From: a virus
Taxonomy: Duplodnaviria > Caudoviricetes
IMG/VR virus record: IMGVR_UViG_2836880742_000002
Span: 1-64,000 of that record
Direction: 5' to 3' (one strand)
DNA length: 64,000 nt
The notes beneath the pieces were generated by a model. That model had not been told where the DNA came from, made no database searches, and saw only the letters and a program-made list of their open reading frames with translations. Positions 39,692 through 59,335 of the stretch are shown piece after piece. The translations under genes and the position numbers were made by a program. Position 1 is the first letter of the stretch; every line of letters begins with the position of its first letter.

Positions 39692-39761
39692 AGCGCATCT
39701 AAGGAATCGAACCTTAACCTTAAACAGGATTGTTCATATGCTACCATGACACCAAATGCGC
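39692..39761 (-). ncRNA. tRNA-Gly-like RNA with 6-nt anticodon loop
   Basis: GCGCATT/GATGCGC-T acceptor, GTGT/GCAT D arm, TGAAC-AATCCT-GTTTA, TAAGG-TTCGATT-CCTTA. Confidence 0.75.
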
Positions 39762-39813
39762 AAAACACGTGGGTACAAAAGCCCCCACGTTCGGCTGTTG
39801 TCCTATCGAAAAC

Positions 39814-40302
39814 TTACTTACTTTCTTCAATAGTGACGGTAAGAGTATCATCACTTCCCGTAACTTTAATTACTCCCCATTTTACCTGATTGCCACTTTC
39901 CGGCTTCAAAGCATCATGGGTATAAGTAATCATACCGCCATCTTGTGAAGTGAAACTATCTTCCGCCGATACGGTAGATTTGTCAATCATAATACCGGGA
40001 ACGGTCTCATCTTCCGGTTGTACAGCGACCGCATAGTTATTGGCAATGATTCCGTCATTCTGCTCAAACGGCATAGTCTTGCCCTTCGCCACACGAATTT
40101 GATAAGCCAACGCATAAGTGTTCTTGGTGTAACGAACATCTTCGTTTTCACCGCCTTCCACTTTCGCTTCCTGCTTTTCACCTTTTGTAGCCGTCAACTG
40201 TGTTGAGTTCTCGACAGGAACAGGTACTTCCTTCCATTTTGAAGAAGGAGTATCCAAATCTTTGATAAAAATTCGGGGTTTTCCCCATCCGATTACAGCC
40301 AT
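39814..40302 (-). CDS. Major tail tube protein
   Basis: 162 aa beta-rich; position after tail terminator. Confidence 0.7.
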   Translation of the reverse strand: MAVIGWGKPRIFIKDLDTPSSKWKEVPVPVENSTQLTATKGEKQEAKVEGGENEDVRYTKNTYALAYQIRVAKGKTMPFEQNDGIIANNYAVAVQPEDETVPGIMIDKSTVSAEDSFTSQDGGMITYTHDALKPESGNQVKWGVIKVTGSDDTLTVTIEESK

Positions 40303-40324
40303 AGTTCTATATCACTTAATATAG

Positions 40325-40753
40325 TTAAACATCATTATTAATCTCAATATACAGTTTGTTATTGATGAAATGTTCGGTATGCCCATCCTCGAAGGAAACG
40401 CCTGTCGGATTAGTCTTTTGGCTGCATTCCGAAGGCACTGTGTGAAAATCATCCTTACGTATAGAAAAAAGGAACTTGGATAAGTCGCACAATTCACCGA
40501 CACGTTCGGTAGCTTCTTCCCATGCCTTTGTTTCGGCATTCCATTTGTCACGGACATAGATGTTGACATTCACATAAGCCCGTTGAGTTTGACCGCATCC
40601 TTCATTGGAAAGGACTGATATGACTATATCCTCCTTGTCCGATTTATTCGGTCTACCCTTTTTGCTTAATTTCCCAGTTACGGCACGTTCAAGTTCCGCC
40701 CCTTTGATTTTGTGATACACAAAGTCTTTTATTTCAACATCCGACTTCATCAT
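40325..40753 (-). CDS. Tail terminator-like protein
   Basis: Size and synteny. Confidence 0.55.
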   Translation of the reverse strand: MMKSDVEIKDFVYHKIKGAELERAVTGKLSKKGRPNKSDKEDIVISVLSNEGCGQTQRAYVNVNIYVRDKWNAETKAWEEATERVGELCDLSKFLFSIRKDDFHTVPSECSQKTNPTGVSFEDGHTEHFINNKLYIEINNDV

Positions 40754-41220
40754 TTAGCAATCTGTCTTTTTAGTTTTTCAAGCATCTTCGACACCTGGTC
40801 TCTTGCCCACAAGTCCGTTGATGCAAGTACATCCTTGTTGTCCATCGCTTCCACAAGTTCAGCATAATTCATTCCAGCTACCACAACAAGCACATAATCA
40901 TTGGAATACCTTTTTACAAGTTCTTCCGCCAATTCCTTGCCTTCTTTGACACCTTCTGAACCTTGCTTCACTTGATTAAAGTCTGAGTATTGAATTATGC
41001 TACCATTTTTGGCAATAACATAACCGACAGAACTGCGAAGATTGCCCGTTCGGTCGTACCAACTATCTTTTCCTGAACGGTCACGTACTTTGGTGACGCA
41101 TTGTTCTCCCAAACGAGCCAACGCACGAACAGTAAGACGTTCTACACGTTCGGCTTCTTTCAGGAGAGCCTTATTCACTTTCTCAAGTCTGGTAGTCATT
41201 CTTATACCCATAATTTGCAC
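40750..41220 (-). CDS. HK97 gp10-like neck protein
   Basis: DRTGNLRSS and YAELVE motifs. Confidence 0.75.
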   Translation of the reverse strand: MQIMGIRMTTRLEKVNKALLKEAERVERLTVRALARLGEQCVTKVRDRSGKDSWYDRTGNLRSSVGYVIAKNGSIIQYSDFNQVKQGSEGVKEGKELAEELVKRYSNDYVLVVVAGMNYAELVEAMDNKDVLASTDLWARDQVSKMLEKLKRQIAK

Positions 41221-41543
41221 TGTTTTTGGTAGTGATGAAAACCTTTTACTTCAAATTCCCGCTCAATTCCTCCGAGCAAGCTAATCCTGACCCTATCGCC
41301 AATAGCGAACGACTTGCTATTGGAAGGAAGATATATGGTGTATGAATATTTACGTACCACACCGTCTTCAAAAGTCCTCTCTTCAGCTTTGCCGTTAGGG
41401 ACTGCATCGCATGGAATATTACCTTCCCAATGGCTTTCTCCCTCGTGGTAATTGCCGTTCTCATCGTCATATCCGGGTGTTGCCACGAGATATTGTAACT
41501 TATGCGGTTTAAAATCCACTACAGACATACGCTTATCCTCCAA
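41202..41543 (-). CDS. Head closure-like protein
   Basis: Size and synteny. Confidence 0.55.
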   Translation of the reverse strand: MEDKRMSVVDFKPHKLQYLVATPGYDDENGNYHEGESHWEGNIPCDAVPNGKAEERTFEDGVVRKYSYTIYLPSNSKSFAIGDRVRISLLGGIEREFEVKGFHHYQKQCKLWV

Positions 41544-41862
41544 TATAGACCGTTGGTTTTGCTTCCAACTCCTTCACTGGCTCACCAATGGATTGGTAAA
41601 TGGAATTGGCTTCATTCAGAATAGCAATCAGTTGCTTATCGGATAAACTACCGACCGATTTGTCCGCTTCGGAGAAATTGACAGCTTGAACCAAAGACCA
41701 AAGACAATCCGCAAAAGCACCGCGATACGATTCTGAGTGCATAACCTCAGATGTACACTCTTCTTCACCATCAAGAGAACGGTAAATCAAAGCATTTTCA
41801 ATAAATCCGACAGAAATATCGTAATGTATTGCATCTTTCAGTGCTTGTTGGATTGTCTTCAT
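41533..41862 (-). CDS. Head-tail adaptor-like protein
   Basis: 109 aa helical, follows capsid gene. Confidence 0.55.
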   Translation of the reverse strand: MKTIQQALKDAIHYDISVGFIENALIYRSLDGEEECTSEVMHSESYRGAFADCLWSLVQAVNFSEADKSVGSLSDKQLIAILNEANSIYQSIGEPVKELEAKPTVYIGG

Positions 41863-41865
41863 AAC

Positions 41866-43233
41866 TTATGCTGATTTATGAGTTTCTACTGCGGCTTTAA
41901 GAATCGCTTCGTCAGAATCATTCAATTTATTCACGGCAGCAATCAACTTATCGTCTGCAATGTTTGTAGCGAGGTTTTTGCCGGTGATTTTATTGAACTC
42001 CTTGACAAACTCCGGTTTCTTGTAAGCCTGCCCCCAAATGGTGATTTTCACATCGCTTGAATCAGAACCTTCCGCTGTTGTATCCACTACTTGCGCTTCT
42101 GAAACATCAAGGATGTAAATCTGGTCTACATCCTCTGTTGTATCCACTACTTGCGCTTCTGAAACATCAAGGATGTAAATCTGGTCTACATCCTCAATAA
42201 TGGGAGCGACAAAAGCCTGACCGGAAGTAATCTCACGCAACGGATTCACAAGCGAATACTTGGAAATCAGTTTGAACGTGTCCACCAACTGATAGATTAC
42301 ATTCTTCACCGGATTGGACTGCTCGGCCAGACGACCGTAGACCAACGTACCGACAACCTCGTTGCAAATGAATACAAGGCGGTTGGCATTCCAAGGTTTC
42401 ACGGAACGCTTTTTGCCATCCTGCTCAAAAATAACAGATCGGTCTATCACTTTAAAGGCGATACCGTTATTGTCATCGGCAAAAGCCTCGTTAAATTTAG
42501 AGGCCGTCGGAGTGGGCAAAATCGTTTCAGCCGTAAATGACTGTCCATTGTAGTTTGCAACTAATTCTTTTGCACCCTGAGTCTGACGGAGTTTATCAAA
42601 CATTGACTTGGCAATGCAGATTTCGATAATCGTGTTGCCGTCCGCATCCGCCTTTGCAATCACACGCTTGATGTCTTCAAGAGAAATTTCATTTTTGACT
42701 GTCGCTCCAAACGTGTTCTTAGGGAAATAATTGAAGTTCAAACGCAGTAATGCGTCCGGAGTGTCTTCGTCTTTGATTGCAACATACCCGTTGGACAAAG
42801 CAAACAAGAAGTTATACTCATTGCGCTCGTCAATTCCGACAGAACATGCGACAGGATCGTCCGACAGCTTCTTGGCTATGTTCTGGGCGTTACCTCCCTG
42901 AGCTTCCATGACATTGATGTTATTGATGTCGGATTCCTTTAAGATTTTTGACATTCCGATTTTGGGAAGCTTCCCGTTGGCGGAAGCGATACTGTCACGA
43001 GACTTGATTGGAAGTTCCGAATCCACCGCAACAAAATCCGCTGCGACATAAGTCGTGTTCACAGACGTACTTTCCCATTTGTTGTCCGGTGAAAACTCTG
43101 TACGAAGCATAGCATTCTCACCTTTATGCAGATAAGTGAGCTTCCCGTTTCTCTTACCGTTCACCTTTTCAATAAGCCGCTGCAACTTCGGGAAGAACTT
43201 GGCGACATATTTTGCAAATAATGATTCATTCAT
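41866..43233 (-). CDS. Major capsid protein
   Basis: 455 aa after scaffold and decoration genes. Confidence 0.8.
   Translation of the reverse strand: MNESLFAKYVAKFFPKLQRLIEKVNGKRNGKLTYLHKGENAMLRTEFSPDNKWESTSVNTTYVAADFVAVDSELPIKSRDSIASANGKLPKIGMSKILKESDINNINVMEAQGGNAQNIAKKLSDDPVACSVGIDERNEYNFLFALSNGYVAIKDEDTPDALLRLNFNYFPKNTFGATVKNEISLEDIKRVIAKADADGNTIIEICIAKSMFDKLRQTQGAKELVANYNGQSFTAETILPTPTASKFNEAFADDNNGIAFKVIDRSVIFEQDGKKRSVKPWNANRLVFICNEVVGTLVYGRLAEQSNPVKNVIYQLVDTFKLISKYSLVNPLREITSGQAFVAPIIEDVDQIYILDVSEAQVVDTTEDVDQIYILDVSEAQVVDTTAEGSDSSDVKITIWGQAYKKPEFVKEFNKITGKNLATNIADDKLIAAVNKLNDSDEAILKAAVETHKSA
42075..42195. repeat. Perfect 60-bp tandem duplication in capsid gene
   Basis: 42075-42135 equals 42135-42195; EDVDQIYILDVSEAQVVDTT twice. 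Confidence 0.95.
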
Positions 43234-43248
43234 AAGTTACCTCCTTTT

Positions 43249-43644
43249 TTAATCATGTTCAAAAACAAGGGTTGGAACAGCCGCTTTCAAGGCAGCTTTG
43301 ATGGTATCAAGCGGATAAGGGCTTGCCATATCATTCACAACTCCGGTGTGCATAATCGACACGAAGGGTTCTTTCACAGATTTAGTAGCACCACATACAC
43401 CTACGTATTCATGACTACCCGGCAAACTTTCATAAGTATCCCCGACAGAATTTACGGGCATAGGCTTATATGTGTCATTTTCCGTATCGTGAATAATTAC
43501 GTGTCCGGCACGTATATATTCTCCTTTAAAATCACTTACATCCAATACTTTGCCGCCTTGAATCCCAGCAATGTATTTGCGAATGACTATCGGGTCATTA
43601 CCAAACCCAAACGATTCAATTGTTCCTACATCTACTACGCTCAT
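43249..43644 (-). CDS. Head decoration-like protein
   Basis: 131 aa between scaffold and capsid. Confidence 0.6.
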   Translation of the reverse strand: MSVVDVGTIESFGFGNDPIVIRKYIAGIQGGKVLDVSDFKGEYIRAGHVIIHDTENDTYKPMPVNSVGDTYESLPGSHEYVGVCGATKSVKEPFVSIMHTGVVNDMASPYPLDTIKAALKAAVPTLVFEHD

Positions 43645-43663
43645 GTTAAATTCATTTTTAGTT

Positions 43664-44383
43664 TTACAAATCAGCCAAAGCGTCTATTTCAGCATCGCTA
43701 AATGGCTCATCTTGTTTTCCTGAACCCTTACCACCGGCAGCAGGAGGGTTTGCCAATGTAGCCAAACCCGCATCCGCACGTTCTTGGTTGTAATTCTTCA
43801 GGTCTTCCTCCACTTCGGAATAGAACTCCTCAAACTCCTCATCGGTTTCAAACTTCATGCGGTCGAAACTCTTAAGGATACGACTGCCGAAAGAACCCGA
43901 ATTTTTGAGCAACTCATTGAGTTTGGATTTTCTTGACGTAGCGACCTTCTCGCCTTTCAATACAGAAATCTCGTTGGTGAGGCTGTCCACTTTGTCGAGC
44001 AACCCTTTTGCCCATGCCGGAGCATCATCATTCTTTTCGTTGTTTTGGGAATTGTTTTTGTTTGAACCCGGTTGACGATTATTTTTTTGTGGTTCGTTAT
44101 TATCATCTTCGTCATCGGTTTCATCGTCATCATTCTTTCTGCGTGCGTCTTCAGCAAGACGATTGGCATAGGACTGGCTGACTTGCAGGAATGGGAGAAC
44201 CGCATCAATTCGTTCTTCGACTTCTGCGTTTACATCCTCATCTAAGGCATCTTCTGCGGAGGTCAGGTTATCGGCAATTTTAGCGGCGATACCCATCAGC
44301 TCCTTTTTATTGAACCCGAACGCCTTCACTTTCGGTTTCAACATCAATAGAACTTTTTGTTTTCTGTCCATTGTACAATACAT
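43664..44383 (-). CDS. Capsid scaffold protein
   Basis: Acidic, low-complexity, PAWAK motif, upstream of capsid genes. Confidence 0.7.
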   Translation of the reverse strand: MYCTMDRKQKVLLMLKPKVKAFGFNKKELMGIAAKIADNLTSAEDALDEDVNAEVEERIDAVLPFLQVSQSYANRLAEDARRKNDDDETDDEDDNNEPQKNNRQPGSNKNNSQNNEKNDDAPAWAKGLLDKVDSLTNEISVLKGEKVATSRKSKLNELLKNSGSFGSRILKSFDRMKFETDEEFEEFYSEVEEDLKNYNQERADAGLATLANPPAAGGKGSGKQDEPFSDAEIDALADL

Positions 44384-44546
44384 TTAGTTAAAAACACGAA
44401 TAGCCTGCGCAGCAACGTATGCCAACAGACTATCCGTGTAGAACTAACCTCAAACAATGGAAGGTTTAAATGTGATTTTGCTTGCATTTGCAATATATCA
44501 CAACGACAAGTTCTGTGGCGTACATCTTCATACGCATTTCTTATGA

Positions 44547-44576
44547 CAAAGATAATAAAAATGATTGAAAAACAAA
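44547..44576 (-). promoter_or_regulatory. Promoter of the head operon
   Basis: TTTG-N18-TATCTTTG on the minus strand. Confidence 0.6.
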
Positions 44577-44727
44577 CATATAATATATATTTTTTTACGA
44601 AAGAGTAGTATTTTGTTCTTAATCACCCATTACAGCGATACCTGATAGACTGAAATCTATCAGGTACACTTCAAGAAACGTTGGCCGAAGCCCAAACGCA
44701 CTATTATTGTCTTGTCATTGTGGCCGT

Positions 44728-45168
44728 TTATATTAATATCCCTTCGTCTAACATCGAGTAGTATTTATCATCACTGATTATAATGCTATCAAGTAATTTT
44801 ATACCAAAGAGGTCAAGTCCTTTCTTTATTTCATCAGAAAGCTTTATATCCTCTTGGCTTGGTTTTATGTTTCCTGATGGGTGATTGTGTACGAAGATTA
44901 CAGCCGAAGAAAGCGCATCAATAGCGTATTTGGCTATAATCCTTCTATCTACTAAAGTTTGGCTTATTCCACCTTGTGATATTTTAGCATACCCTGTTAT
45001 GTTATTGGCCTGATTCAATAAAATAATAAAAGCACTTTCATAGATTAATACATCTTCGTGATAGAACTTTCTGGAAAAATTAAACGCATCTTCTGAAGAA
45101 CGTACTTTGATTATTTCAAAATCTTGTTTCTTTGCTGTTATGCTGTATTCTACGGCTTTCTTTTTCAT
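44728..45168 (-). CDS. RadC-like JAB domain protein
   Basis: E...HNHPSG..PSQED...LLDSIII. Confidence 0.88.
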   Translation of the reverse strand: MKKKAVEYSITAKKQDFEIIKVRSSEDAFNFSRKFYHEDVLIYESAFIILLNQANNITGYAKISQGGISQTLVDRRIIAKYAIDALSSAVIFVHNHPSGNIKPSQEDIKLSDEIKKGLDLFGIKLLDSIIISDDKYYSMLDEGILI

Positions 45169-45210
45169 TGCTCTTTATATTGTGTAGGGCTTTTGCCCTA
45201 CCGGTTAAAC

Positions 45211-45495
45211 TTATCTTTTATCTATCACTAAGTAATGTTCCGCCAAGCATTTCACCCATTGTATACGATATTTCTTAGATGGATGATTCCATTCTATATC
45301 TCTTATAGCAGAAAGAATATCGGATGTGCTTTCTTTATAATATCTTGCCAATATCATCAATACATTATAGCTTTCTTGCGGTGTAAAATGTAAAGAACGT
45401 CTGTACCTCTTTGCTGTTTCATATACCCTTTTTGAGAACGATTCAACAGTCTCAAAATCTTCTTTTTTATAATTGAAAAGGTTTGTTGCTTTCAT
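45211..45495 (-). CDS. Hypothetical protein
   Basis: 94-aa ORF behind a repeated promoter block. Confidence 0.6.
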   Translation of the reverse strand: MKATNLFNYKKEDFETVESFSKRVYETAKRYRRSLHFTPQESYNVLMILARYYKESTSDILSAIRDIEWNHPSKKYRIQWVKCLAEHYLVIDKR

Positions 45496-45650
45496 TGCTC
45501 TTGTCTTTTAATTATTAGTATTATATGTTTCTTTTATTTGATATATAAAGATACTCATTTTCAGCGAGTTAACAAAATATCTACACAAGTAATTTACTCA
45601 TAATCAGAAGTTTAACTTTTGCTCACTTTGAGCGTAAACAGATACAAAAA
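45491..45650. repeat. Dispersed promoter/leader repeat, copy 1
   Basis: Gap-free alignment to 52571-52730; 105/123 identical over 45505-45627 by hand count. Confidence 0.85.
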
Positions 45651-45697
45651 AAGAGCGACTTAAAAGCCACTCTAACATCTAAAAATAAACAGAAATT

Positions 45698-46129
45698 TTA
45701 TCCTATCAAATACCTATATGCTTTGAGGTATTTATTCAATCTCGCCAAATCCTTCTCCGTGATTTGCTCCAGCCGAGTAATATCCATGTTATCTTCCAAG
45801 TCGTGTATTTTCACTTGGCGGCCAATAGGACTGAGGTATGAACGTTTAACAAAATCTTCATAGCTTTCTTCTTCATTACGGGTGACAGACAGTATCGCAT
45901 CTACAATATTACGAGGGAATCCTTCTGAAAGCAAATATTCAGGTGTGATGTTTGTATCTTCTATCGTATCGTGCAACAAAGCAACAATACGCTCATCATC
46001 GGTCTTACAACGGTTGGACACACGAATAGGATGAAAAATATAGGCTGCTCTAGCTTTGTCTACTTGCCCTTCATGAGCTTTAGCTGCTATCTGGAGAGCT
46101 TTTTCTAATAAAGGATTAGTAACTGTCAT
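45698..46129 (-). CDS. aph1: HD-domain small alarmone hydrolase (Aph1/Mesh1-like)
   Basis: AHEGQVDK...YIFHP, LLHDTIEDT, VKIHDLEDN; downstream of the MuF-synthetase. Confidence 0.75.
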   Translation of the reverse strand: MTVTNPLLEKALQIAAKAHEGQVDKARAAYIFHPIRVSNRCKTDDERIVALLHDTIEDTNITPEYLLSEGFPRNIVDAILSVTRNEEESYEDFVKRSYLSPIGRQVKIHDLEDNMDITRLEQITEKDLARLNKYLKAYRYLIG

Positions 46130-46343
46130 ATTCGTATTTGGATATTTCTTTACCACCAAGAATTACGTTGCAAATTGTTTCATTTGATTGTGGTAATTCA
46201 ATCTCTTTGCGACCTCTATGTTTAAGGAATGATTTTGTTCTATCATCTTCATATACAAGCCGCACTACCGCTTCTTCAAAATCATCTAATAAATAAATGA
46301 TTTCTCCGACCTGTAGTCTTTTTTGTAGAATCTTTTGGTTCAT
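46116..46343 (-). CDS. Putative immunity protein of the MuF toxin
   Basis: 75 aa directly after the toxin; own promoter-like TATCTTTA at 46353-46360. Confidence 0.6.
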   Translation of the reverse strand: MNQKILQKRLQVGEIIYLLDDFEEAVVRLVYEDDRTKSFLKHRGRKEIELPQSNETICNVILGGKEISKYEYDSY

Positions 46344-46367
46344 ATTTATATGTAAAGATAGTTATTT

Positions 46368-47972
46368 TTATTGGAAATGCCTATAATATTCAATTGATTT
46401 TTGAGCTATTTTTTGCGCCTCATTGCTTGCCTTATCAAGAACGCGCCATTCTTCGTAATATTTATGTCCAAGCCCTCCTTCCATGCCGGTTTGCTCCTGT
46501 ATCTCTTTCCAGCGTTTCTCGCCAAGAATGCGTTTGGCATCCTCTGGTTTTTCTTTCGCATAAATCATTCGTTCTGTATTGACCTGTATTTCTGCTGTAA
46601 GCCCATCCGAAGTTTTAATATTTACAATGTTTCCGCTATATCCCATAAAAGATTCCGGTCTTTGCCTTTTAAGCCTTAAGAACACATTCATGTCGGATAG
46701 CTCAGCTAGAACATTTTCTATCTGACCTTTGGGTACTATGATAGTAGTCCTTACAGCATCCTTTATATCGTATGGGGTTATATTTTCAGTTGTGACCTTT
46801 CTTGTGATGGATGCAGCACTCTTGAAATTTACGGGAGTTACGAAACCTTTATTCTTGAATGCTATTCGTTCAGCAAAAGCCTGCACCTCATTACCTACTG
46901 ATGATGCACGCTTTACGACTTCCGAAACAGAACCTTCAACTGTCACTTTCTGATAGACGGATTTGTTGTCACGCAAAAAGTACGGTAAAGTGTTTCGTTT
47001 CTTTGCTTCTTTAATTCTTTCCTGATTGTCAAGCACCCACTTTTTAAATCCGTCCGGTACGTCTTTCACCTTATTCACGCTTGTAGTGTCAGTTTCACTA
47101 CGCCCATCCCATTCCCAAAACTCTTCCTCCGTCTTTAGAATTGGTATCTTATAACATCTATCAAGCGGATGCCAACCAGTCCATACAAAATCTTTTGGAT
47201 ATTTACCTGCAAGCATGTCGCAAATATCGTGTTCAGGGTGGGTGTTGCTTAACTTGATTTCATACCCTACCACAAAATCAAACTGTTTCCAACGTTCGTT
47301 CTCTGCCGTGCGGTAGGCCATGTTGACTTCGGAAGCAGCCAAACGCAAAGAGCGGTATTCACAATCCACAGCTTTACTTGCTTTGCCAAATCTTTCCTTG
47401 TAATCCTTTTGTAATCTTGGAAAGTCAAGCAGGTATTTGGATATTCGCTTACTCAATGTAACCGCACTTGTTCCTTTCTGAATGGCGCACGATATAGCAT
47501 CTTCAAGTTCTTGCTTGTACAAAGCAGACTGATTCCACAGTTTATCCGAAATAGTGAAGCCTTTGTCTGTACGGTTCTGAAATGCTTGCAGTGCGTTACT
47601 GTTAGTTTGGTAGAAGACCTTGTACTTTTCTTTGTCAATCGTAGCATCGTATGCCTGCAAGACTTTGTTTGCCAACAAGTCTTGCGCCTCGTTGCTGTTC
47701 TTCCATTCTTCGGACGTTCCGCTATAAATGATCGTATTAATGTCTTCGACAAACCGTTTTTGTAAATCCTTGATACGTTTTTTCGTTTGTGGATAGTCCG
47801 ACCATTTGAACAGTTTTTCATTATCGCTCGAATAATCAGTAATTCCGATTATTCGAGCGGCCTCCAAATTCAAATCTTCATAGATGGATTCCACGAGCGT
47901 AATATACTTGGCAAGCCGAGTATTCAGTTCGCTGTATTTTCGCTTTTGATTGGGAGTTTTAGGTTTCGCCAT
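46368..47972 (-). CDS. apk2: MuF minor head protein with C-terminal RelA/SpoT-like synthetase toxin (Apk2-like)
   Basis: MuF RLAASE...ICD...WHPLDRC; then KSAASITRK, KDAVR, GY, EIQ, HKYYEEWR. Confidence 0.75.
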   Translation of the reverse strand: MAKPKTPNQKRKYSELNTRLAKYITLVESIYEDLNLEAARIIGITDYSSDNEKLFKWSDYPQTKKRIKDLQKRFVEDINTIIYSGTSEEWKNSNEAQDLLANKVLQAYDATIDKEKYKVFYQTNSNALQAFQNRTDKGFTISDKLWNQSALYKQELEDAISCAIQKGTSAVTLSKRISKYLLDFPRLQKDYKERFGKASKAVDCEYRSLRLAASEVNMAYRTAENERWKQFDFVVGYEIKLSNTHPEHDICDMLAGKYPKDFVWTGWHPLDRCYKIPILKTEEEFWEWDGRSETDTTSVNKVKDVPDGFKKWVLDNQERIKEAKKRNTLPYFLRDNKSVYQKVTVEGSVSEVVKRASSVGNEVQAFAERIAFKNKGFVTPVNFKSAASITRKVTTENITPYDIKDAVRTTIIVPKGQIENVLAELSDMNVFLRLKRQRPESFMGYSGNIVNIKTSDGLTAEIQVNTERMIYAKEKPEDAKRILGEKRWKEIQEQTGMEGGLGHKYYEEWRVLDKASNEAQKIAQKSIEYYRHFQ

Positions 47973-47978
47973 TGTATA

Positions 47979-49124: not shown

Positions 49125-49140
49125 ATCTATAAAGATTTAA

Positions 49141-51173: not shown

Positions 51174-51324
51174 AGACTAGTATCGTACTCCTTCATACGG
51201 TGATGGTTATAACTTCTGCAAAGTTATAAATTTCGATTGAATAACAATCGTTTTTATAAAAAAGAAAACGCAACTATCAAAGTAATTGCGTTATTATAAT
51301 ATTATAAGTTTTATCCGTCAAATT

Positions 51325-51654: not shown

Positions 51655-51660
51655 ATTATA

Positions 51661-52008: not shown

Positions 52009-52099
52009 CGTTTTTAGTTTATAGTGCAAAGATAGTAATTTGTTTCTAAAAAGCGATACAACCGCGTCTAAAATCTATTTTTACCTTATATAGCACTGT

Positions 52100-52399: not shown

Positions 52400-52407
52400 A
52401 TAAGGTT

Positions 52408-52575
52408 TTAATAACAGATGCAAACCAAGTACCTTACCGCTTTAGACAAGCTGTAATCTGAATGATATTCAATGTATAAATGGTAATTACGTTCAATTGA
52501 CTTCTTTGCCTCAGATTTATTACAACCGATTTTAACAGCTTTTGCCAACAACTGTTCTTTAGTATAAGTTTTCAT
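52408..52575 (-). CDS. 55-aa hypothetical protein (absent from the ORF track)
   Basis: MKTYTKEQLLAKAVKIGCNKSEAKKSIERNY...; ATG aligns exactly with that of 45495 in the repeat. Confidence 0.55.
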   Translation of the reverse strand: MKTYTKEQLLAKAVKIGCNKSEAKKSIERNYHLYIEYHSDYSLSKAVRYLVCICY

Positions 52576-52730
52576 TACTCTCGACTTTTAATTGTTAGTA
52601 TTATATGTTTCTTTAATTTGATATGTAAAGTTACTCATTTTTAGCGTATTAGCCAAATATCCACATCGCTAAATTATTTATAATCAGAAGTTTAACTTTT
52701 GCTTACTATTGATGTGGACAGGCACAAAAA
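52571..52730. repeat. Dispersed promoter/leader repeat, copy 2
   Basis: Offset 7080 from copy 1 with no indels. Confidence 0.85.
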
Positions 52731-52832
52731 TGCTCCGACTTTCACAAGCCAGAGCACATAGAGCAATGAAAACTGCATACTAAAAGAAACAATAATACAG
52801 CTTTCGATACAAAGTTATAGTAAATCTTTGAA

Positions 52833-54344
52833 TTACAAGAAATCTCGAAGCAATTCTTCATCACTGATATAGTCAAAATCATGTGGATAAAATGTGTTTG
52901 CCAATGCGTCCATATAGTCAGGAGACCGCTTGATTCGTTTCTTGATTTCTTCCTTCGGTTCAATAATAATCCGACCGTCGCTTTGGAATTTCCAATGCGT
53001 TTCGGTAGCTTCTTCCATGAGCTTATCACAAGGAGGCAAAGCCGCACCAAATCCATTTTTGGGATTTAGCCAGTCACGCAATGACCAATAACAATAAGCA
53101 CGCATATTGGCAAATTCATATTGACCTGTTATATCATGCAGCCCTCTCGCTCCTTCCGAATACTTGCAAGAATAGGCATTCTTATACCCAAGTTCCTCCA
53201 AACGGGAATACACTCCTGCACCTTCGCCGATGGTATCAATGAAAGCCTTTGCGTTCTCATCTGAGAGATACGAAATGTGCATCCCTGCCACGTGCATGTG
53301 GTCAGCCTTGCCAGCCGATTGGTGAACTTCAAATTTAGGTACATAATTGCCATATCGAGGACACACCACACTATCATCACGTCCCATACCTGCAACGTCA
53401 GAGCCAAGCCTACATGATTTTGTAGGAGTAAAGTCTTCTTCCTGGAGACGATGCCAATTTTCGTTGGCTATCTCTATCCACTCGTATGGGATAAGTACGT
53501 CTTCCGACACTTTCGGGAACATGCCAAGCACTTTGACACGGAAAAGGTCGTTCGGACGATACAAACAGCCTTCCCACTTGAAATCTCCTTCCCCCGCATT
53601 GAAATCTGCTTGTTGAATGGGAGAGCACCAGTTTATTACCTTATCTTTTACCCATTCATAGTTGACTTGCCCGGGAATTATCAACTGCTTGCTGACTACG
53701 TTTTCCGCATTCAACGAGTTAAGTCTGAACTTGGCAAAGCGGTCAGACTTCATCGCACGTGCCGCATAGCCGGTAGTGATGTTGGGATTGAACACAATAA
53801 GTAGCCGGGAGTTTCCCTGCAAATTGCCTTCAATCGCATTATAGATGGTTTCGGATATACCGGACGCTTCAGTAACTACAAACATGGTGTTCACGGCATG
53901 GAATCCAGACCACGCCTCCATGTTGTCGTCACCACTCTTAAAACCCGTCAAAAACCATTCATAATAATTAGTTCGGATTCCTGAAGACAACAAACGACCG
54001 GGCAAAATACCTGCATTACGAAATAAACGGGAAACTTCCGGTATCATAATATCCTTGACCTGACGACCTGAAGGTGCAGTCATTGCAATCTTGGTATTTT
54101 TTACCAACTTACCATCTTTCCAACGAGGAGTAAGGTACATGAAACACATGGCTGCACAAGCTGCGATATAGTCCTTTCCCCTTGATGTACCACTGGCTAC
54201 AGCTGTCATAGGATTATGCTGGACAGAGTGAAGGATAGCCTGTTGTTCCTTATCCAGCCTTGCATGGAGAACGTCATGTGCGAACTTGCACCAGTCCTCC
54301 CGCCATGCCTTCATGTATCGTATGGCCTTGTCTACCTTGCTCAT
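52833..54344 (-). CDS. terL: Terminase large subunit
   Basis: SGTSRGKD Walker A, VVTEA Walker B, GSDVAGMGRD and SPDYMDAL nuclease motifs. Confidence 0.92.
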   Translation of the reverse strand: MSKVDKAIRYMKAWREDWCKFAHDVLHARLDKEQQAILHSVQHNPMTAVASGTSRGKDYIAACAAMCFMYLTPRWKDGKLVKNTKIAMTAPSGRQVKDIMIPEVSRLFRNAGILPGRLLSSGIRTNYYEWFLTGFKSGDDNMEAWSGFHAVNTMFVVTEASGISETIYNAIEGNLQGNSRLLIVFNPNITTGYAARAMKSDRFAKFRLNSLNAENVVSKQLIIPGQVNYEWVKDKVINWCSPIQQADFNAGEGDFKWEGCLYRPNDLFRVKVLGMFPKVSEDVLIPYEWIEIANENWHRLQEEDFTPTKSCRLGSDVAGMGRDDSVVCPRYGNYVPKFEVHQSAGKADHMHVAGMHISYLSDENAKAFIDTIGEGAGVYSRLEELGYKNAYSCKYSEGARGLHDITGQYEFANMRAYCYWSLRDWLNPKNGFGAALPPCDKLMEEATETHWKFQSDGRIIIEPKEEIKKRIKRSPDYMDALANTFYPHDFDYISDEELLRDFL

Positions 54345-54706
54345 TTTTCATCATCCGGCAATTCCTGCATTAGTTTTTCAAATGGATTAATCGTAATATC
54401 TTGCTCTATTTTCTCTGTATATCCACGGTCTCTCATCTTGGTCTTACTAAGCCAAATAAGCATAGTGTTATCCTGTTCTGTAATGGCCTTCGTAAACATG
54501 ACTGTTTCGAGTTTGTCTTTGAAAGATTCTTCCACTTCCTCCCATTGCTTGCGAAATTCTTCATCCTTTTCTCTCCACTTATATGCAAGAGTACGAGATA
54601 TTCCGGCAGCTTCACACGCTTTTGTTACATTCAACAGTCTTGCATCAAGCGCATTAAGAAAAATCTCTTTCTTTTTCTTTACAGGAATCCTAAATTTCTG
54701 TGCCAT
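54341..54706 (-). CDS. terS: Terminase small subunit
   Basis: HTH NVTKACEAAGISRTLAYKW; overlaps terL; start ATG 54706. Confidence 0.8.
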   Translation of the reverse strand: MAQKFRIPVKKKKEIFLNALDARLLNVTKACEAAGISRTLAYKWREKDEEFRKQWEEVEESFKDKLETVMFTKAITEQDNTMLIWLSKTKMRDRGYTEKIEQDITINPFEKLMQELPDDEK

Positions 54707-55394
54707 CTTTATTTCCCTCCAATACGTTATTAACAATTTCCAGCATCTTGCAAACACTCAATGCCTGTGCCTTGATTTTATACTTGGCTTGTACTTTAGC
54801 ACTTACTTCGTTTAATCTGCGCATTGTTTCTATGTCTAACAAAGTAAGATTTCCAAGTTCCTTTTCGGAATAGCACTCTAGCGTCTCCATGAGTTTATCA
54901 AACGACACTTTCTGGGTATCGACAAACATTAAAGTAACCGGAACAACTTCATTATTAGGCATTTCAACCGTATAGTTAATGTCCCTCACGCTTTCTAATA
55001 CTTCATTGCTGATATGGGCGTATTCCTTTAATGCCACATCTGTTATTTCATCAAGAAGTTGCTTTAAGACCTCTGCATCGTCCTGTCCGACAATACTGTT
55101 GTGGCTCAACTGTGTTGCCAACAACCAATCATTAGACGTATCAGACTCGTCAATATACATTACATGGATAGATGTCAGTCCTGCCATCTTCGCAGCCTGT
55201 GTCCTATGGTTGCCACTGACAACCGTATATGTTCCATCCTCATGCTTTACGCAGAACGGAACAGAGGATAATTGCCCATCTCTACGAATATTATTCACAA
55301 GTGCGTTAAACGTATCATTACTCATAAAATGAGCATTCTTCTTGATAAGTTTAATGTCAGAAAGCTGAACTTCTGCTATTTTGAATTTCTCCAT
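54690..55394 (-). CDS. ParB-like domain protein
   Basis: NAHFM...VVSGNHRTQAA...HNSIVGQDD. Confidence 0.85.
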   Translation of the reverse strand: MEKFKIAEVQLSDIKLIKKNAHFMSNDTFNALVNNIRRDGQLSSVPFCVKHEDGTYTVVSGNHRTQAAKMAGLTSIHVMYIDESDTSNDWLLATQLSHNSIVGQDDAEVLKQLLDEITDVALKEYAHISNEVLESVRDINYTVEMPNNEVVPVTLMFVDTQKVSFDKLMETLECYSEKELGNLTLLDIETMRRLNEVSAKVQAKYKIKAQALSVCKMLEIVNNVLEGNKDGTEI

Positions 55395-55397
55395 TGT

Positions 55398-57485
55398 TTA
55401 CTCCTTTCTCGGTTCGTTTCCGTATTTCTGTACAAATGCCTTTAAAATCTCATCTAATTTTCCACGAATGCCTGCGTCTTGGATATAGTGAAGTTTTCCC
55501 ACGCATCTTTCATGTAATTTGAAAACTCCCCGATACTTCATACTTACGGGTTTATCAGTAAACACAGACGTGGCAATAATCCCACATTCGTGTTTGTACC
55601 GAATATCCAACTCTGCTTTAAATTCCGTTGAAAGCACCCCTGTAATGAGCAATCTGCTTAACTTCTGTATCGGATGGTCTATCACAAAATCTGATTTCAT
55701 CCAAACAGCATCCATGCCATATTTGCTTACTTTCAGAAAGTCAAACATACAAGCTCCAAATACATAATCATCCAAGAACCACAGGTAACAGAACGGTGCG
55801 GATCCAAGTATAATGCCCTTCTTTAGATATATCATCCGCAAGTAGTCTATTTCCGCCATAGAAGCACGGATGAAACGTAACTTACTTTTCTCGGTAAGTA
55901 TGTAATCATCCGGCAGCCGTTTGTATTTCAACGGGATGATGGTACGCTTATTGAAACTGTTCTCGCCCGTATCTCCAACATTGGAGTAAACATAAGTACG
56001 CTGGTCTTTGAAAACCTCCCTGCGTCCCATAAAGCCGTGTTGTGATAATAGCATATAATTCACCAACCCTTCGTCTATCTCCGAATACTTGGTATGGGTA
56101 CGTTCCTGCCAACCGAAATCATCCAAAAGAAAACGCTGCAAGGCGTTGCTTGTAGCTTTCATGCCGGAATGAAACTCGTTCTGGTAAATCATGATATCGT
56201 TTTCATTGCAGTTGAGTATTGCATCCGATATATCTGCACAATACAAAACTTCAATGTTCTTCGGTTTAAGATTATCGACAAGTTTTTGATACCTCTCCGT
56301 GTATTTCTTCTTGTAGTAATCCAACCGGGCTATAAAATCATCGTATAGTGATTTATGGTAAATGTCTTGTGAGTTCTTATGTTTCTTGATAGCATTGAAC
56401 AAATGAATAGAAGCAACAATCTCTGCTGGATTGTCCGACCGGATGTCCATGAAACTATATTCCTCATTAAAACACAACTCTCTCACTTCTCCTTTGATTG
56501 CTTTGTACATGAGGTAGATAAAATACTCTTTCGTGTACACTTTTATCTCACGGTTGGTAAGCACTTGCTCTATATCCATATAGTAGGAGTTTACTATGTG
56601 GGCGATGTCGAACTTTGAAGCCTCTTTTTTTATGTAAGAAAGCATACGGTTGGTCTTCTTGAACATCTGACCAACGATTGTTACATTATCCGAATGCTCT
56701 GCTGCCCACAAAAGAGGTTTGTGCCTTTGCGGAACTTTAGAATAATCAATATGGAATGCTTCAAGGCATTTTTCAATCGTGGTAAGTTGCTTGTATTCTT
56801 CCATATCCTCATGTAAGTAAGCATATTCCACGAATGAATACATAAATTTGATTGTTTCCAGCACTTTGTCAAAATCCCATGAGCTATTGAAGATGCGGAA
56901 CTCACATGTGCCAATTTTAGAGATTGAACACAGATTGAGCCAATACCTTATATGCCCTCTGTCCGAACCGTTGCTGAACACTTTTAACAGATTGTCAACT
57001 GTGTCAACATTCAAAACTCTTTGTACTACATCCCAAGGAGGACTTGGTACAAGATACTTCGTTTCCCACCATTCGGCAATGTCAAAAATCCGTTTGATTG
57101 GATATGCGGTATAGTAAGAAAGCGCGAACATCCGTTTAATAACATCCAAATCCATATCCTTGATATACAGATGCGCATCAAACCCCTCATTCCACATGAG
57201 ATAACTCCCGGCATCTCTCATCGTTTGGATGAAATCTTTTAGTTCCTGTAAATCTTCAACGCAGTAATGATATGGCCGGGTGTTTATCTCACCACCAAAC
57301 TGACCATGATGCGTGACTGCCGAACCGTCCGAGTTATTCATCATGGTTAGCTTGTTATCCGTCCACTTGTAACCAGATGGAAGTGGTATGCGTTGTTTGT
57401 CACCATCAGCAAATTCCAATTCCATGCCAAATGTACGATTGGCGATATAGTCAATCCAGGGCTTATCTATATTCATGTTCTGCAT
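55398..57485 (-). CDS. Amidoligase (COOH-NH2 ligase) fused to a C-terminal GNAT/Mom-like domain
   Basis: RTFGMELEF, GEINT, AHLY, RYWLNL, GTCEFRIFNSS; C-terminal YLWFLDDYVFGACMF...KLSRLL...FTDKPVSMKYRG (C-terminal call is less certain). Confidence 0.65.
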   Translation of the reverse strand: MQNMNIDKPWIDYIANRTFGMELEFADGDKQRIPLPSGYKWTDNKLTMMNNSDGSAVTHHGQFGGEINTRPYHYCVEDLQELKDFIQTMRDAGSYLMWNEGFDAHLYIKDMDLDVIKRMFALSYYTAYPIKRIFDIAEWWETKYLVPSPPWDVVQRVLNVDTVDNLLKVFSNGSDRGHIRYWLNLCSISKIGTCEFRIFNSSWDFDKVLETIKFMYSFVEYAYLHEDMEEYKQLTTIEKCLEAFHIDYSKVPQRHKPLLWAAEHSDNVTIVGQMFKKTNRMLSYIKKEASKFDIAHIVNSYYMDIEQVLTNREIKVYTKEYFIYLMYKAIKGEVRELCFNEEYSFMDIRSDNPAEIVASIHLFNAIKKHKNSQDIYHKSLYDDFIARLDYYKKKYTERYQKLVDNLKPKNIEVLYCADISDAILNCNENDIMIYQNEFHSGMKATSNALQRFLLDDFGWQERTHTKYSEIDEGLVNYMLLSQHGFMGRREVFKDQRTYVYSNVGDTGENSFNKRTIIPLKYKRLPDDYILTEKSKLRFIRASMAEIDYLRMIYLKKGIILGSAPFCYLWFLDDYVFGACMFDFLKVSKYGMDAVWMKSDFVIDHPIQKLSRLLITGVLSTEFKAELDIRYKHECGIIATSVFTDKPVSMKYRGVFKLHERCVGKLHYIQDAGIRGKLDEILKAFVQKYGNEPRKE

Positions 57486-58341
57486 ATCTCAACTTGACTA
57501 ATGATTTATAACTGGGTGTAAATACAACAAAGTCTCCAATGCAATAATCTGAGCAACGACCATTGATTACGTCCATTACAGTGTATTCGCTTGAGCTATC
57601 TGAATATTGTAAACCGTTGTCAAAGCAGCAACACTCATTCATGTCAGCCATAGAATACCCACAATCAAGAAGTATCTGGCTGCGTTCCGGATAAACGCCT
57701 ACGACCTTAGTCCACAATTCAATACCGTTTACACCTAATTTGTTTTCATTGCCATTGTATGGAATTGTGCCAAATAGCATATATTCTCCAATGCGTACAT
57801 CGCTTATGAATTTAGGCAGGTTTTCATTCTGTCCTAACCAAAAGCTACCACCTAAACTGATTGATTCAATATCGCCATTCAATGTTGCCCATATTTTACA
57901 CAGTCGTTGCATATCCGGTCTGCTTCCATTCAAACAACCAGAGGTTATCATCCCGTAAGCATGGGCGTTATCATCGCAAGAACGAACCATCTTTGCAATC
58001 TGTCTTGCTTCAAACAAACTTACCCCTTCTCTATTATCAAACGCATTGATAGGAATATAGATATTCTTGATGCATCTGTCTACAACGCAATCCATTACAT
58101 CATACGTGGTAGTAACCACTGCGCCTTTTTGATTACGCCTAGCCTTTCCAATAGAGTAACACACACTATCTTCAAAGTGAAGCGAAAAAATATCATTATC
58201 AACTCTATGATGGAGATGCTTCCAAATATCCTCATAAAAATCTTTGAACATGAGCGAAACAGGAACATTTACAAGTGTTTCCGCTTTCTTGATGTTCTTA
58301 ACAATGTTGTCTGTATATATAATTACTTTCATAACTCCCAC
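57463..58341 (-). CDS. Fold-III PLP enzyme, alanine/ornithine racemase-like
   Basis: N-terminal Lys (SLMFK), NREG, SLGGS, VRIGEYMLFG, SSSEY. Confidence 0.75.
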   Translation of the reverse strand: MGVMKVIIYTDNIVKNIKKAETLVNVPVSLMFKDFYEDIWKHLHHRVDNDIFSLHFEDSVCYSIGKARRNQKGAVVTTTYDVMDCVVDRCIKNIYIPINAFDNREGVSLFEARQIAKMVRSCDDNAHAYGMITSGCLNGSRPDMQRLCKIWATLNGDIESISLGGSFWLGQNENLPKFISDVRIGEYMLFGTIPYNGNENKLGVNGIELWTKVVGVYPERSQILLDCGYSMADMNECCCFDNGLQYSDSSSEYTVMDVINGRCSDYCIGDFVVFTPSYKSLVKLRYAEHEYR

Positions 58342-59228
58342 TTCAAAATGACACGTTCAACTCCTTTGTATTTTGTAGCACGTTTAGGCGAGAAACCAGC
58401 ATTGGTGAAACTTTTAATACTTGCGTCATTCTTGGGTGAAGTCATGGCAAATATTTCTTGTACTCCATTGGAGACCAACCTTGCAATATTTGCATTAAGA
58501 AGAATATACTGAAACCCATTACCTCTGTAATCTGAACTGACAAAACATTTATCAACGTATGCTGTACCGTATTCTGTAAAATAAGCAAGTGAATAAGCTA
58601 CAAAAGAGCCGTCCAGCCATAAGCCATAACTGCAACCGGATTGCAAACATTTCGCTATATCCTGAGGTTCTGATGCAAAGCATATTTCAGGATTAGATAG
58701 TAAGGCTTGTTCCATTGTTTCAATCTCGGTCATATCAAACATAGACAGAGACTTGACTTCCATTTTACATTCAATACTTCCTCTATGGGTAGGAAATAGA
58801 GGCTCGTATCGGTCTATCCATGCTTTGGAGAGGAATGCATCAACATCTGTTTGAGACAACAATGCTTTTCTGTAATTGTCAAAAATGCCTAATACAAATT
58901 CTTTATGTTTGGTTAGTTGCTCATTCTTCAAAGGACACTTGCCACTACGGAAAACAAAACCTTTCTTTACCGACTTTACCCACAAAGGATAAGTTCTACA
59001 CATGATAGGTTTGTAACCATTGTCACATGACTTACAGTCTTTAGCGATACATTTTACCTTTTTACCGCCAAAGTAATCATTGTCTATAATTCGTAAATGA
59101 GATATTTCCTGCTCGTGCCCGTTAAATTCATAGGGCAAAATAACGATATGCCCGTCCGAACCGAACGAACAACACTTCCAGCCGCAGTCAGATTTTTCAC
59201 ATGCTCTTATTAGTCCTTTTCCGTCCAT
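58329..59228 (-). CDS. YkgJ-like Cys-cluster domain fused to GNAT acyltransferase
   Basis: CxxxxCxxxCC...KPIMCRTYP; VSSDYRGNG acyl-CoA motif and NDASIKSFTNAGF. Confidence 0.8.
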   Translation of the reverse strand: MDGKGLIRACEKSDCGWKCCSFGSDGHIVILPYEFNGHEQEISHLRIIDNDYFGGKKVKCIAKDCKSCDNGYKPIMCRTYPLWVKSVKKGFVFRSGKCPLKNEQLTKHKEFVLGIFDNYRKALLSQTDVDAFLSKAWIDRYEPLFPTHRGSIECKMEVKSLSMFDMTEIETMEQALLSNPEICFASEPQDIAKCLQSGCSYGLWLDGSFVAYSLAYFTEYGTAYVDKCFVSSDYRGNGFQYILLNANIARLVSNGVQEIFAMTSPKNDASIKSFTNAGFSPKRATKYKGVERVILKWEL

Positions 59229-59265
59229 ATTCTTGGGTTGTATATAACTTCATATACTTTATTTG

Positions 59266-59335
59266 AGCGGAAACAGGGAATCGAACCCCACTCTTTGGCT
59301 GGAATGCCAACGCTCTACCGATGAGCTATTTCCGC
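59266..59335 (-). tRNA. tRNA-Gly(UCC)-like with non-canonical 6-nt anticodon loop
   Basis: GCGGAAA/TTTCCGC-T, GCTC/GAGC, TTGGC-ATTCCA-GCCAA, TGGGG-TTCGATT-CCCTG. Confidence 0.8.

Follow-up and report, generated by a model that had tools for sequence, protein, structure and literature searches.

Why would a phage keep, among its late genes, two transfer RNA (tRNA) genes of glycine type whose anticodon loops hold six bases? The question is raised by the IMG/VR virus record IMGVR_UViG_2836880742_000002, an 88.5-kb record classed as a provirus, whose first 64 kb (64,000 nucleotides, henceforth referred to as the window) contain two 70-nt cloverleaves on the minus strand, copy 1 at 39692-39761 and copy 2 at 59266-59335. 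Both elements are surrounded by genes of the same strand, which make up a late module of siphovirus type (terminase, portal, head, tape measure and small tail genes). The best-supported mechanism, to which a probability of roughly 0.45 is assigned, is that the two copies would serve as dedicated, non-decoding glycyl-donor tRNAs. This reading is favoured because aberrant glycine tRNAs recur next to genes for GNAT-phage-like fusion enzymes and because the Mom protein of phage Mu provides a precedent. According to PMC5009743, departures from the standard loop sizes are rare among tRNAs. Literature searches returned no six-base loops in phage tRNAs, no tRNA-like elements between tail genes, no natural tRNA family with a fixed six-base loop and no phage tRNA partnered with a DNA-modifying GNAT enzyme.

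Structure of the two elements

Parsing reproduced both cloverleaves described in the sequence-only reading, an earlier inspection of the window made from its letters, together with the pairs G1-C72, C2-G71 and G3-C70, the discriminator U73 and the loops AATCCT (copy 1) and ATTCCA (copy 2). When the whole 88.5-kb record was scanned on both strands for generic cloverleaves under strict settings, exactly these two elements were returned, both with 6-nt loops; since the scan yields them alone, the cloverleaves did not arise by chance. Copy 2 parses as GCGGAAA/TA/GCTC/ATCGGTA/GAGC/G/TTGGC/ATTCCA/GCCAA/AGAG/TGGGG/TTCGATT/CCCTG/TTTCCGC/T, which gives the three acceptor pairs and U73, places TCC in the 6-nt loop and contains wobble pairs at 49-65 and 50-64, so that the two T-stem wobbles noted earlier for this copy were also borne out. 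ARAGORN reports copy 2 as a tRNA with the two-base anticodon 'tc', and the Rfam tRNA model (RF00005), whose gathering score is 29 bits, matches it at 53 bits with a deletion at one loop position.

Copy 1 was not called by ARAGORN, and in Rfam it was unmatched both at the gathering threshold and by the tRNA model at E ≤ 10. Folded by itself to the minimum free energy (MFE), the sequence does not adopt a cloverleaf (z -1.78). A complete cloverleaf with the dimensions of copy 2 can nevertheless be parsed from it, and copy 1 scores 67.8 bits in model R1, but its sequence was in the R1 training set.

Two conserved families

Relatives of copy 2 were collected with a pattern anchored on the anticodon stem, in which the loop length was left free at 5-9 nt. 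The pattern yielded 100 viral loci, and the loop is ATTCCA in all 100 of them. The same pattern with seven free loop bases yielded 0 loci, i.e. no 7-nt version with those stems, and the copy 2 acceptor and D arm combined with other anticodon stems gave 0 matches. An independent covariance model applied to ten whole related contigs returned 7 second hits, each of which has a 6-nt loop; the contigs partly coincide with the 100 loci, and three of the hit sequences lie outside the search pattern. Copy-2 elements share a mean pairwise identity of 99.4% (30 of the 64 compared positions being fixed by the pattern) versus 37-52% in their flanks. One diverged relative, L220, has changed acceptor, D and T stems and a different 6-nt loop, ACACCA, a type that was found in this single contig only.

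The family of copy 1 was assembled from 80 loci (L101-L180) fetched with the 162-aa tail protein encoded upstream of it. A cloverleaf is present between the same two tail genes in 79 of these relatives. In an alignment of 18 distinct sequences of this tail-intergenic family, henceforth family 1 (alignment A1), 98.1% of cells are paired compared to 27-55% in slid-partner controls; compensatory double changes were observed in 14 of the 21 pairs, and the observed score was reached by 0 of 500 shuffles. G1, C2, G3, C35, C36, C70-C72 and U73 are invariant. Acceptor pairs 1-3 and U73 are fixed and pairs 4, 6 and 7 vary, and all five pairs of the anticodon stem covary. Position 33 may be A, C or U, position 34 is U or A, and position 37 varies as well; U33 is confined to the class with loop CTACCAG or CTACCTG. 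The elbow positions T54, C56 and the D-loop GG are kept, also by the class whose T loop is odd. All 18 sequences have Watson-Crick partners at 32 and 38 (C-G in 14, A-U in 4), from which the family-1 anticodon arm is predicted to be effectively a 6-bp stem with an N-N-C-C-A pentaloop.

Family-1 relatives are 70-71 nt long with a nominal 7-nt loop, and the window copy is one base shorter, with a gap at position 37. Within the family the 6-nt loop belongs to the window lineage only, which comprises two records: the window and L233, a metagenome contig of independent origin that matches the window at ~96.5% identity across 14 kb and likewise reads AATCCT. L233 keeps A14, as does every other family member; window copy 1 alone has C14.

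On these alignments, copies 1 and 2 are assigned to two different conserved families. Assembly error would not account for the 6-nt loops, because the copy 2 loop is the same in 100 of 100 loci and the copy 1 loop recurs in an independent contig. The sequence-only reading had proposed a tabulation of loop length across homologues and had taken the same anomaly in two copies as a sign of selection. The tabulation gave 6 nt throughout for copy 2, while the 79 relatives of copy 1 have 7-nt loops with a pairable 32-38 and often without U33. The selection argument consequently stands for copy 2, whose 6-nt loop is fixed family-wide, and fails as a statement about both copies, the anomaly not being shared by the relatives of copy 1.

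An observation on the diverged relative may be recorded here. The L220 element (L220:1501-1571, minus strand; = L232) has G3.U70 instead of G3-C70, together with U73 and C35-C36; G3.U70 is the classical alanine identity pair. The contig of L220 is also the one whose tail operon is without a copy-1-type element.

Glycine identity and comparison with host tRNAs

The bacterial identity set for glycyl-tRNA synthetase (GlyRS) comprises G1-C72, C2-G71, G3-C70, U73, C35 and C36. All six positions are present in copies 1 and 2, and the glycine identity positions named in the earlier reading proved to be conserved in both families; in alignment A2 they are kept in all phage rows except L220 (G3.U70). 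The discriminator is followed by C74 in 79 of 80 family-1 elements and, among the 100 copy-2 loci, in each of the 19 distinct variants, C74 being the only part of CCA that is encoded.

A Paraprevotella metagenome-assembled genome (MAG) is the sole named genome carrying copy 2, and for this reason the host of the provirus is probably a member of the Bacteroidales. Among the tRNAs listed for this MAG, GCG...CGC plus U73 with an NCC anticodon is found in tRNA-Gly alone. Its tRNA-Gly(UCC) has the acceptor stem and discriminator of copy 2, but its loop is CTTCCAA. Chromosomal 71-nt compact tRNA-Gly(CCC) genes occur in the family of the host MAG (L234-L239), in operons with tRNA-Thr(CGT) or tRNA-Lys(CTT). 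These genes share with copy 2 the 7-nt D loop, the 4-nt variable loop, the T loop and the G49.U65 wobble, and their anticodon loop is a normal TTCCCAA; aligned with them, copy 2 has exactly one loop base fewer. The chromosomal compact genes are the likely source type of the phage elements, and both copies are best read as derivatives of a compact tRNA-Gly. In model R1 the host tRNA-Gly(CCC) genes score 58.8-61.4 bits and copy 2 scores 60.1 bits. A special paralogy of copies 1 and 2, considered on the basis of their R1 similarity, was dropped because the host genes score equally.

The double wobble at 49-65 and 50-64 was observed in 1 of the 26 T stems parsed from host-MAG loci, and that one is the phage tRNA, while a single 49-65 wobble is present in all 3 parsed host tRNA-Gly. 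By this comparison the compact body and the single G49.U65 appear as normal traits of host tRNA-Gly, and only the anticodon loops and the 50-64 wobble as aberrant. The earlier argument from a weak T stem is thereby reduced to the second wobble, which is unique to the phage tRNA among the 26. Neither copy combines a 7-nt loop with U33 and an unpaired 32-38 (copy 1 has A33), and across the phage elements position 33 may be A, C, U or G and position 34 U or A. Glycine codon usage is unremarkable, GGA making up 28% in phage open reading frames (ORFs) and 22% in sampled host-locus ORFs. A codon-supply role was dropped because this usage shows no special demand.

The GNAT module in the window and in other lineages

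Copy 2, a compact tRNA-Gly(UCC)-derived gene according to ARAGORN, Rfam and its relatives, is the first element of an operon ending in a GNAT-phage-like fusion gene. The order in the copy-2 loci is tRNA, variable accessory genes, the fusion gene with its PF22559 domain, a ParB-like gene and terminase. Where at least 4.5 kb of downstream sequence is available, 35 of 35 loci have a PF22559 gene downstream of the tRNA and on its strand; where at least 2.5 kb is available, 58 of 60 do. In the window it encodes a 695-aa protein (55398-57485, minus strand) that joins an Amidoligase_2 domain to the GNAT-phage-like domain, as identified by Pfam, BLASTP and an AlphaFold model of the C-terminal part. 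BLASTP aligns this protein end to end with 677-692-aa homologues carrying PF22556, and its middle region aligns with the DNA-adenine-methylase-like (DAM-like) part of homologues. The fusion gene takes three forms among the loci, 24-32% identical to that of the window, which include a 433-aa DAM-like-1 + GNAT protein and the 677-692-aa Amidoligase_2 + DAM-like-2 + GNAT protein. DAM-like domains (PF22555 or PF22556) are fused in the homologues of L037, L044, L058 and L250. The ParB-like protein that follows the fusion gene in the window (54690-55394, minus strand; PHROGs and Pfam) is found in the same place in Mycobacterium, Gordonia and Faecalibacterium phages.

Full-length homologues of the fusion were detected by tblastn in three groups of isolated phages. 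Mycobacterium phage Argie encodes a homologue with 25.6% identity, which precedes a ParB-like gene; 88 nt separate it from a tRNA-Gly(UCC) gene on its upstream side. No further tRNA is annotated in the part of the genome that was covered (59.2 of 61.5 kb). In the loop of this tRNA, CUUCCAG, C32 and G38 are able to pair on a 5-bp stem, and its D arm is like that of family 1. The PF22559 domain was found in 4 of 401 genomes of the host phylum, in prophages, and an aberrant tRNA-Gly gene stands upstream of the module in 2 of these 4 Bacteroidota prophages. One of the two, with loop CGACCAG, escaped ARAGORN, scores 71.6 bits in R1 and is separated by 37 nt from the DAM-like-1 + GNAT gene downstream of it; the other, with loop CAUCCAG, heads a three-gene operon ending in an amidoligase + GNAT fusion. 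Across eight module lineages an aberrant glycine-type tRNA is adjacent in four, a tRNA-Lys in one, and no tRNA was detected in three. The domain family as a whole comprises 425 representative clusters at E ≤ 0.001, and the Atlas clusters nearest to PF22559 carry the automatic name 'GNAT-like putative antirestriction protein'.

Relation of the fusion enzyme to Mom

Mom of phage Mu has a GNAT fold and transfers glycine from Gly-tRNA-Gly onto N6 of adenine in double-stranded DNA (2026; PMC13219725; a preprint on the tRNA-dependent glycylation is available as 10.1101/2023.03.24.534169). As described in PMC13219725, all three E. coli tRNA-Gly isoacceptors work and Gly-tRNA-Ala fails. Mom has a helix-turn-helix-like insertion and the essential residues R111 and S124. 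The authors of PMC13219725 suspect recognition at the acceptor end of the tRNA and note a possible cost of co-opting host translation. The term 'phage-encoded tRNA' is absent from the text of PMC13219725, and no mention of a phage tRNA was found in the parts of the main text covered.

The AlphaFold model of the PF22559 domain has a predicted local distance difference test (pLDDT) score of 85.2 and a GNAT fold. Foldseek returned 36 PDB matches at E ≤ 0.001; those listed are nearly all GNAT acetyltransferases, and Mom (8bv8_B) is included. An Atlas match to a Mom cluster (0.87) was also obtained and is regarded as a lead only. Judged from these comparisons and from the profile searches weighed below, the PF22559 enzyme would not be a member of the Mom family but may work like Mom.

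Neighbouring genes and other structured elements

Copy 1, defined by its parse, alignment A1 and covariation as a member of family 1 with loop AATCCT (A37 lost) and C14, lies between two late genes on the minus strand. The upstream gene (39814-40302) encodes the 162-aa protein, which belongs to phrog_17745 with no PHROG function and whose position in the module suggests a tail tube protein; it has a 50% match in one unannotated fecal phage record. At the DNA level, megablast and blastn found no isolated phage similar to either region. A GC-rich hairpin at the 3' end of this gene (39767-39790, minus strand) ends 5 nt before G1 of copy 1. The gene downstream (38960-39673; phrog_11996) encodes a conserved 237-aa late protein, starts 18 nt past copy 1 and is directly followed by the tape-measure gene (34810-38898; 1362 aa). 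The large terminase gene of the late module is at 52833-54344, also on the minus strand. In the classes CATCCAG, CAACCAG and CTACC(A/T)G among L102-L180, a conserved hairpin with the motif GTCTGTGAAGATAGCC is located ~40-90 nt past the cloverleaf and before the next gene; the GTCTGTGAAGATAGCC hairpin is absent from the window and from the ACTCCAT class. Four or more consecutive T occur in the 12 nt that follow the element in 41 of 80 family-1 members.

Just upstream of copy 2 are genes for a YopX protein (59396-59860) and a DUF488-N3a protein (59857-60258), both on the minus strand and both identified by Pfam, the latter having a homologue in 94 of 100 related loci. A perfect 9-bp inverted repeat with a 21-nt loop (59336-59374, minus strand), read from the sequence, ends directly at G1. 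A normal tRNA-Cys, tRNA-Phe or tRNA-Ser gene lies ~80-300 nt upstream on the same strand in 46 of 100 copy-2 loci. Loop polymorphisms were observed in these partner tRNAs, with C33 for U33 in 4 of 29 tRNA-Cys and AAA for GAA in 2 of 16 tRNA-Phe.

Two optional accessory genes separate copy 2 from the fusion gene in the window, both on the minus strand. The first (58329-59228) encodes a 299-aa protein with a C-terminal coenzyme A (CoA)-type GNAT domain (PF00583, E 2.6e-8); tblastn homologues of it are present in 30 of 100 copy-2 loci, and of the 60 loci that extend 2.5 kb or more past the tRNA, 16 have such a homologue as their first ORF. Its single-sequence fold (pLDDT 35) is unusable. The second (57463-58341) encodes a 292-aa protein with weak racemase-like or D-serine-dehydratase-like similarity (PF14031, E 0.005, below the cut-off; NCBIfam ornithine racemase, E 4e-6, far below the cut-off). 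In PDB sequence searches, the 299-aa and 695-aa proteins gave weak generic matches only. The accessory cassette consists of a CoA-type GNAT gene together with a racemase-like gene in the window and other loci, or of an opine/octopine-dehydrogenase-like gene (e.g. L044:4809-5948, minus strand), and these variable amino-acid-handling cassettes suggest that the modifying group varies.

A third tRNA is located in the same record beyond the window (79129-79203, minus strand). It has an 8-nt anticodon loop, TTGGTTAA, which ARAGORN reports as 'ggtt', and does not match the glycine-type model. An anchored pattern recovered four relatives, all with an 8-nt loop reading TTGGTTAA or TTTGTTAA (5 of 5 including the provirus). 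The outermost loop bases are pairable, which would leave 6 nt.

Proposed mechanism and alternatives

Under the glycyl-donor reading, the tRNA genes would be transcribed with the late and packaging-proximal operons and then matured. A search for sequencing runs listed no RNA run, the one entry being of DNA or unknown type with a share of 0.22. The features that have been kept (the full cloverleaf, G1-C72, C2-G71, G3-C70, U73, C74, C35 and C36) would suffice for processing and for recognition by GlyRS, and the host synthetase would charge the elements with glycine. The aberrant loops, unable to adopt the canonical 7-nt decoding shape, would make them ribosome-inert carriers. Such glycyl carriers could feed the phage GNAT-phage-like fusion enzyme, which contains a DAM-like domain in homologues and an amidoligase domain here, and the enzyme would aminoacylate phage DNA as an anti-restriction modification. 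Copy 1, right after a tail-operon hairpin, might act in addition or instead as a processing point for RNase P and RNase Z. Gene adjacency is the support for the step in which the fusion enzyme may use a charged tRNA as acyl donor. Of the three functions suggested in the sequence-only reading (glycyl donor, anticodon-nuclease decoy, RNase P signal), the non-ribosomal glycyl donor is the one strengthened, by the recurrent adjacency and the Mom precedent. The donor proposal finds no counterpart in a Fem-type transferase: no Fem-type or L/F-type aminoacyl-tRNA transferase was found by Pfam among the neighbouring proteins, which match PF00583, PF22559 and PF12224 only.

Several observations weigh against the glycyl-donor reading. 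Copy 1 is ~19.5 kb from the GNAT module, the locus closest to the window by tail protein (L101) has the hairpin alone and no cloverleaf, and window copy 1 may itself be degenerating, because A37 has been lost and the otherwise invariant A14 has changed. GlyRS may not accept C35-C36 presented in a 6-nt loop or a pentaloop. Adjacency within the phage group of the window is shared synteny and is not independent evidence. Outside this group, no tRNA was detected adjacent to the module in Gordonia phage Clawz, L249 or L251. Faecalibacterium phage FP_Brigit (L242, NC_047909.1) has instead a normal tRNA-Lys(CUU) at 5639-5715 on the plus strand, which was the sole tRNA match when the whole record was searched with Rfam; 163 nt further downstream is a DAM-like/GNAT homologue that is followed by ParB-like, small terminase and large terminase genes. 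As for the enzyme, Pfam DAM-like models detected nothing in the 695-aa protein of the window or in L248. Mom (8bv8) is placed only at rank 31 among the fold matches (E 7.9e-4, TM 0.42/0.44), behind CoA-dependent acetyltransferases; none of 25 PF22559 members matches the Mom Pfam family PF25680 at E ≤ 1, and the PF22559 profile has no match in the PDB at E ≤ 10. Finally, a dedicated tRNA is not required for Mom-type chemistry, because Mom works with ordinary host tRNA-Gly of all isoacceptors.

A broader form of the donor reading, held more tentatively, is that tRNA, enzyme and ParB constitute a tRNA-dependent DNA hypermodification cassette common to phages of Bacteroidota and Actinobacteria, in which the loop would have been deliberately disabled, by a 6-nt length or a paired 32-38, so that translation neither drains the glycyl donor nor is disturbed by it. 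Under it, the tRNA-Lys of FP_Brigit would suggest that the adjacent tRNA sets the amino acid that is put on DNA.

Among the alternatives, a role in RNA processing can coexist with a donor role and fits copy 1 best, although as an account of these elements it is considered unlikely. The cloverleaves would here mark RNase P and RNase Z sites in polycistronic late transcripts, a cut at G1 leaving the upstream tail mRNA with a protective 3' hairpin and freeing the downstream mRNA. The arrangement of family 1 suits this well: each of the 80 elements follows a stable hairpin at a distance of 0-5 nt (45-nt MFE -9.9 to -15.2 kcal/mol), the site between the same two tail genes is retained in 79 of 80 relatives, the end of copy 1 is 18 nt from the next start codon, and the elbow bases persist even in the odd-T-loop class; copy 2, too, is directly preceded by its 9-bp inverted repeat. 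However, the acceptor and T arms should be enough for RNase P and RNase Z, and the covariation of all five anticodon-stem pairs and the invariance of C35 and C36 go beyond those needs. The fixed acceptor pairs 1-3 and U73 beside varying pairs 4, 6 and 7 are a better fit to synthetase identity, and processing leaves the recurrence of aberrant tRNA-Gly beside the GNAT module in other lineages unexplained. Counter-defence, in the form of a decoding tRNA-Gly that resists an anticodon nuclease or a decoy for a host factor directed at tRNA-Gly or Gly-tRNA-Gly (for example such a nuclease or a TacT/AtaT-type GNAT toxin), is judged quite unlikely. Phage tRNAs that escape tRNA-targeting defences via anticodon-loop changes have been published (PMC10264068, PMC11555353), copy 2 is conserved like a real tRNA downstream of normal tRNAs in 46 of 100 loci, and both the partner-tRNA polymorphisms (U33C in tRNA-Cys, G34A in tRNA-Phe) and the 8-nt loop of the third provirus tRNA and its four relatives could be taken in its favour. 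Yet the loop classes share C35-C36 only, with A37 usual, so that a sequence-specific nuclease decoy is unlikely, and a 6-nt loop or a paired 32-38 may not permit decoding. The text of PMC10264068 is without the terms deletion, insertion, loop size and decoy; no tRNA-Gly-targeting Bacteroidales defence turned up, none having been searched for, and the glycine codon usage given above indicates no special demand.

Neutral decay and recoding are both unlikely for the families as wholes. Decay into functionless tRNA pseudogenes carried along by synteny is judged very improbable as an account of the elements and could apply to window copy 1 only. That copy has two derived defects, the loss of A37 and the change of A14 to C, the element is wholly lost in L101, and neither Rfam nor ARAGORN recognises copy 1. 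Set against this are the 99.4% identity of copy 2 across phages with 37-52% flanks, the 98% pairing that family 1 holds through 14 compensated pairs, and the stable inheritance of both loop states. Neutral decay, which the sequence-only reading had named, alongside a lack of processing and charging, as an outcome that would speak against it, is for the families as wholes contradicted by this covariation and by the identity of copy 2. Recoding, in which a 6-nt-loop tRNA would read a two-base glycine codon and cause a -1 frameshift and the 8-nt-loop tRNA a +1 shift, can appeal to doublet decoding by a tRNA visualised on the ribosome (PMC12202706), but is regarded as highly improbable. None of the provirus ORF pairs on one strand depends on a frameshift, and its large genes are unbroken; with the exception of one 59-aa frame, each downstream ORF has a start of its own at the upstream stop or close to it. 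In the window and in four relatives, copy 1 is followed by one uninterrupted conserved ORF of ~235 aa, with no G/GT split, and loop length and positions 33 and 34 vary in the copy 1 family.

The dedicated glycyl-donor reading describes a large uncharacterised enzyme family that is accompanied, in several distant phage lineages, by its own disabled tRNA-Gly. If the link is functional, tRNA-dependent DNA modification extends well beyond Mu, the 'broken' phage tRNAs that annotation software throws out or marks as pseudo gain a rationale, and one tRNA, one synthetase and one enzyme make up a simple system open to testing. If it is not, two well-supported structured RNA families still need an explanation.

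Comparison with known systems

Defence-evading phage tRNAs resemble the present elements in being phage-borne and in having an anticodon loop unlike that of the host. As far as the published cases cited above go, those are decoding tRNAs with substitutions, whereas here the loop length or the 32-38 pairing is changed and U33 is often lost. The processing alternative has its closest parallel in mascRNA, whose processing forms the 3' end of MALAT1, and in the tRNA punctuation of transcripts. The likeness lies in a cloverleaf placed directly after a structure that protects a 3' end. The Rfam mascRNA model matches copy 1 at 13.4 bits (E 8), which is not significant, and unlike mascRNA the elements keep an anticodon arm and C35-C36, more than processing should need.

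Staphylococci have a non-proteinogenic tRNA-Gly that feeds Fem peptidyltransferases (references 55 and 56 of PMC13219725). T-stem pairs that weaken EF-Tu binding belong to that system, and a possible counterpart in copy 2 would be its double wobble at 49-65 and 50-64. As in that system, the copies would be an extra tRNA species with glycine identity, kept off the ribosome and acting as donors to a GNAT-fold transferase. The staphylococcal tRNAs differ in having 7-nt loops, altered T stems and a chromosomal location and in serving cell-wall synthesis, and no Fem protein is present here. The likeness to Mom consists in a phage GNAT-fold enzyme linked with tRNA-Gly, in a probable anti-restriction role suggested by the Atlas cluster name, and in homologues fused to a DAM-like domain, which may point to DNA adenine as the target. 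Mom takes host tRNA-Gly of any isoacceptor, whereas the tRNA here is phage-encoded with a non-canonical anticodon loop, and the enzyme here is a PF22559 protein with additional amidoligase and DAM-like domains that matches Mom in generic fold only.

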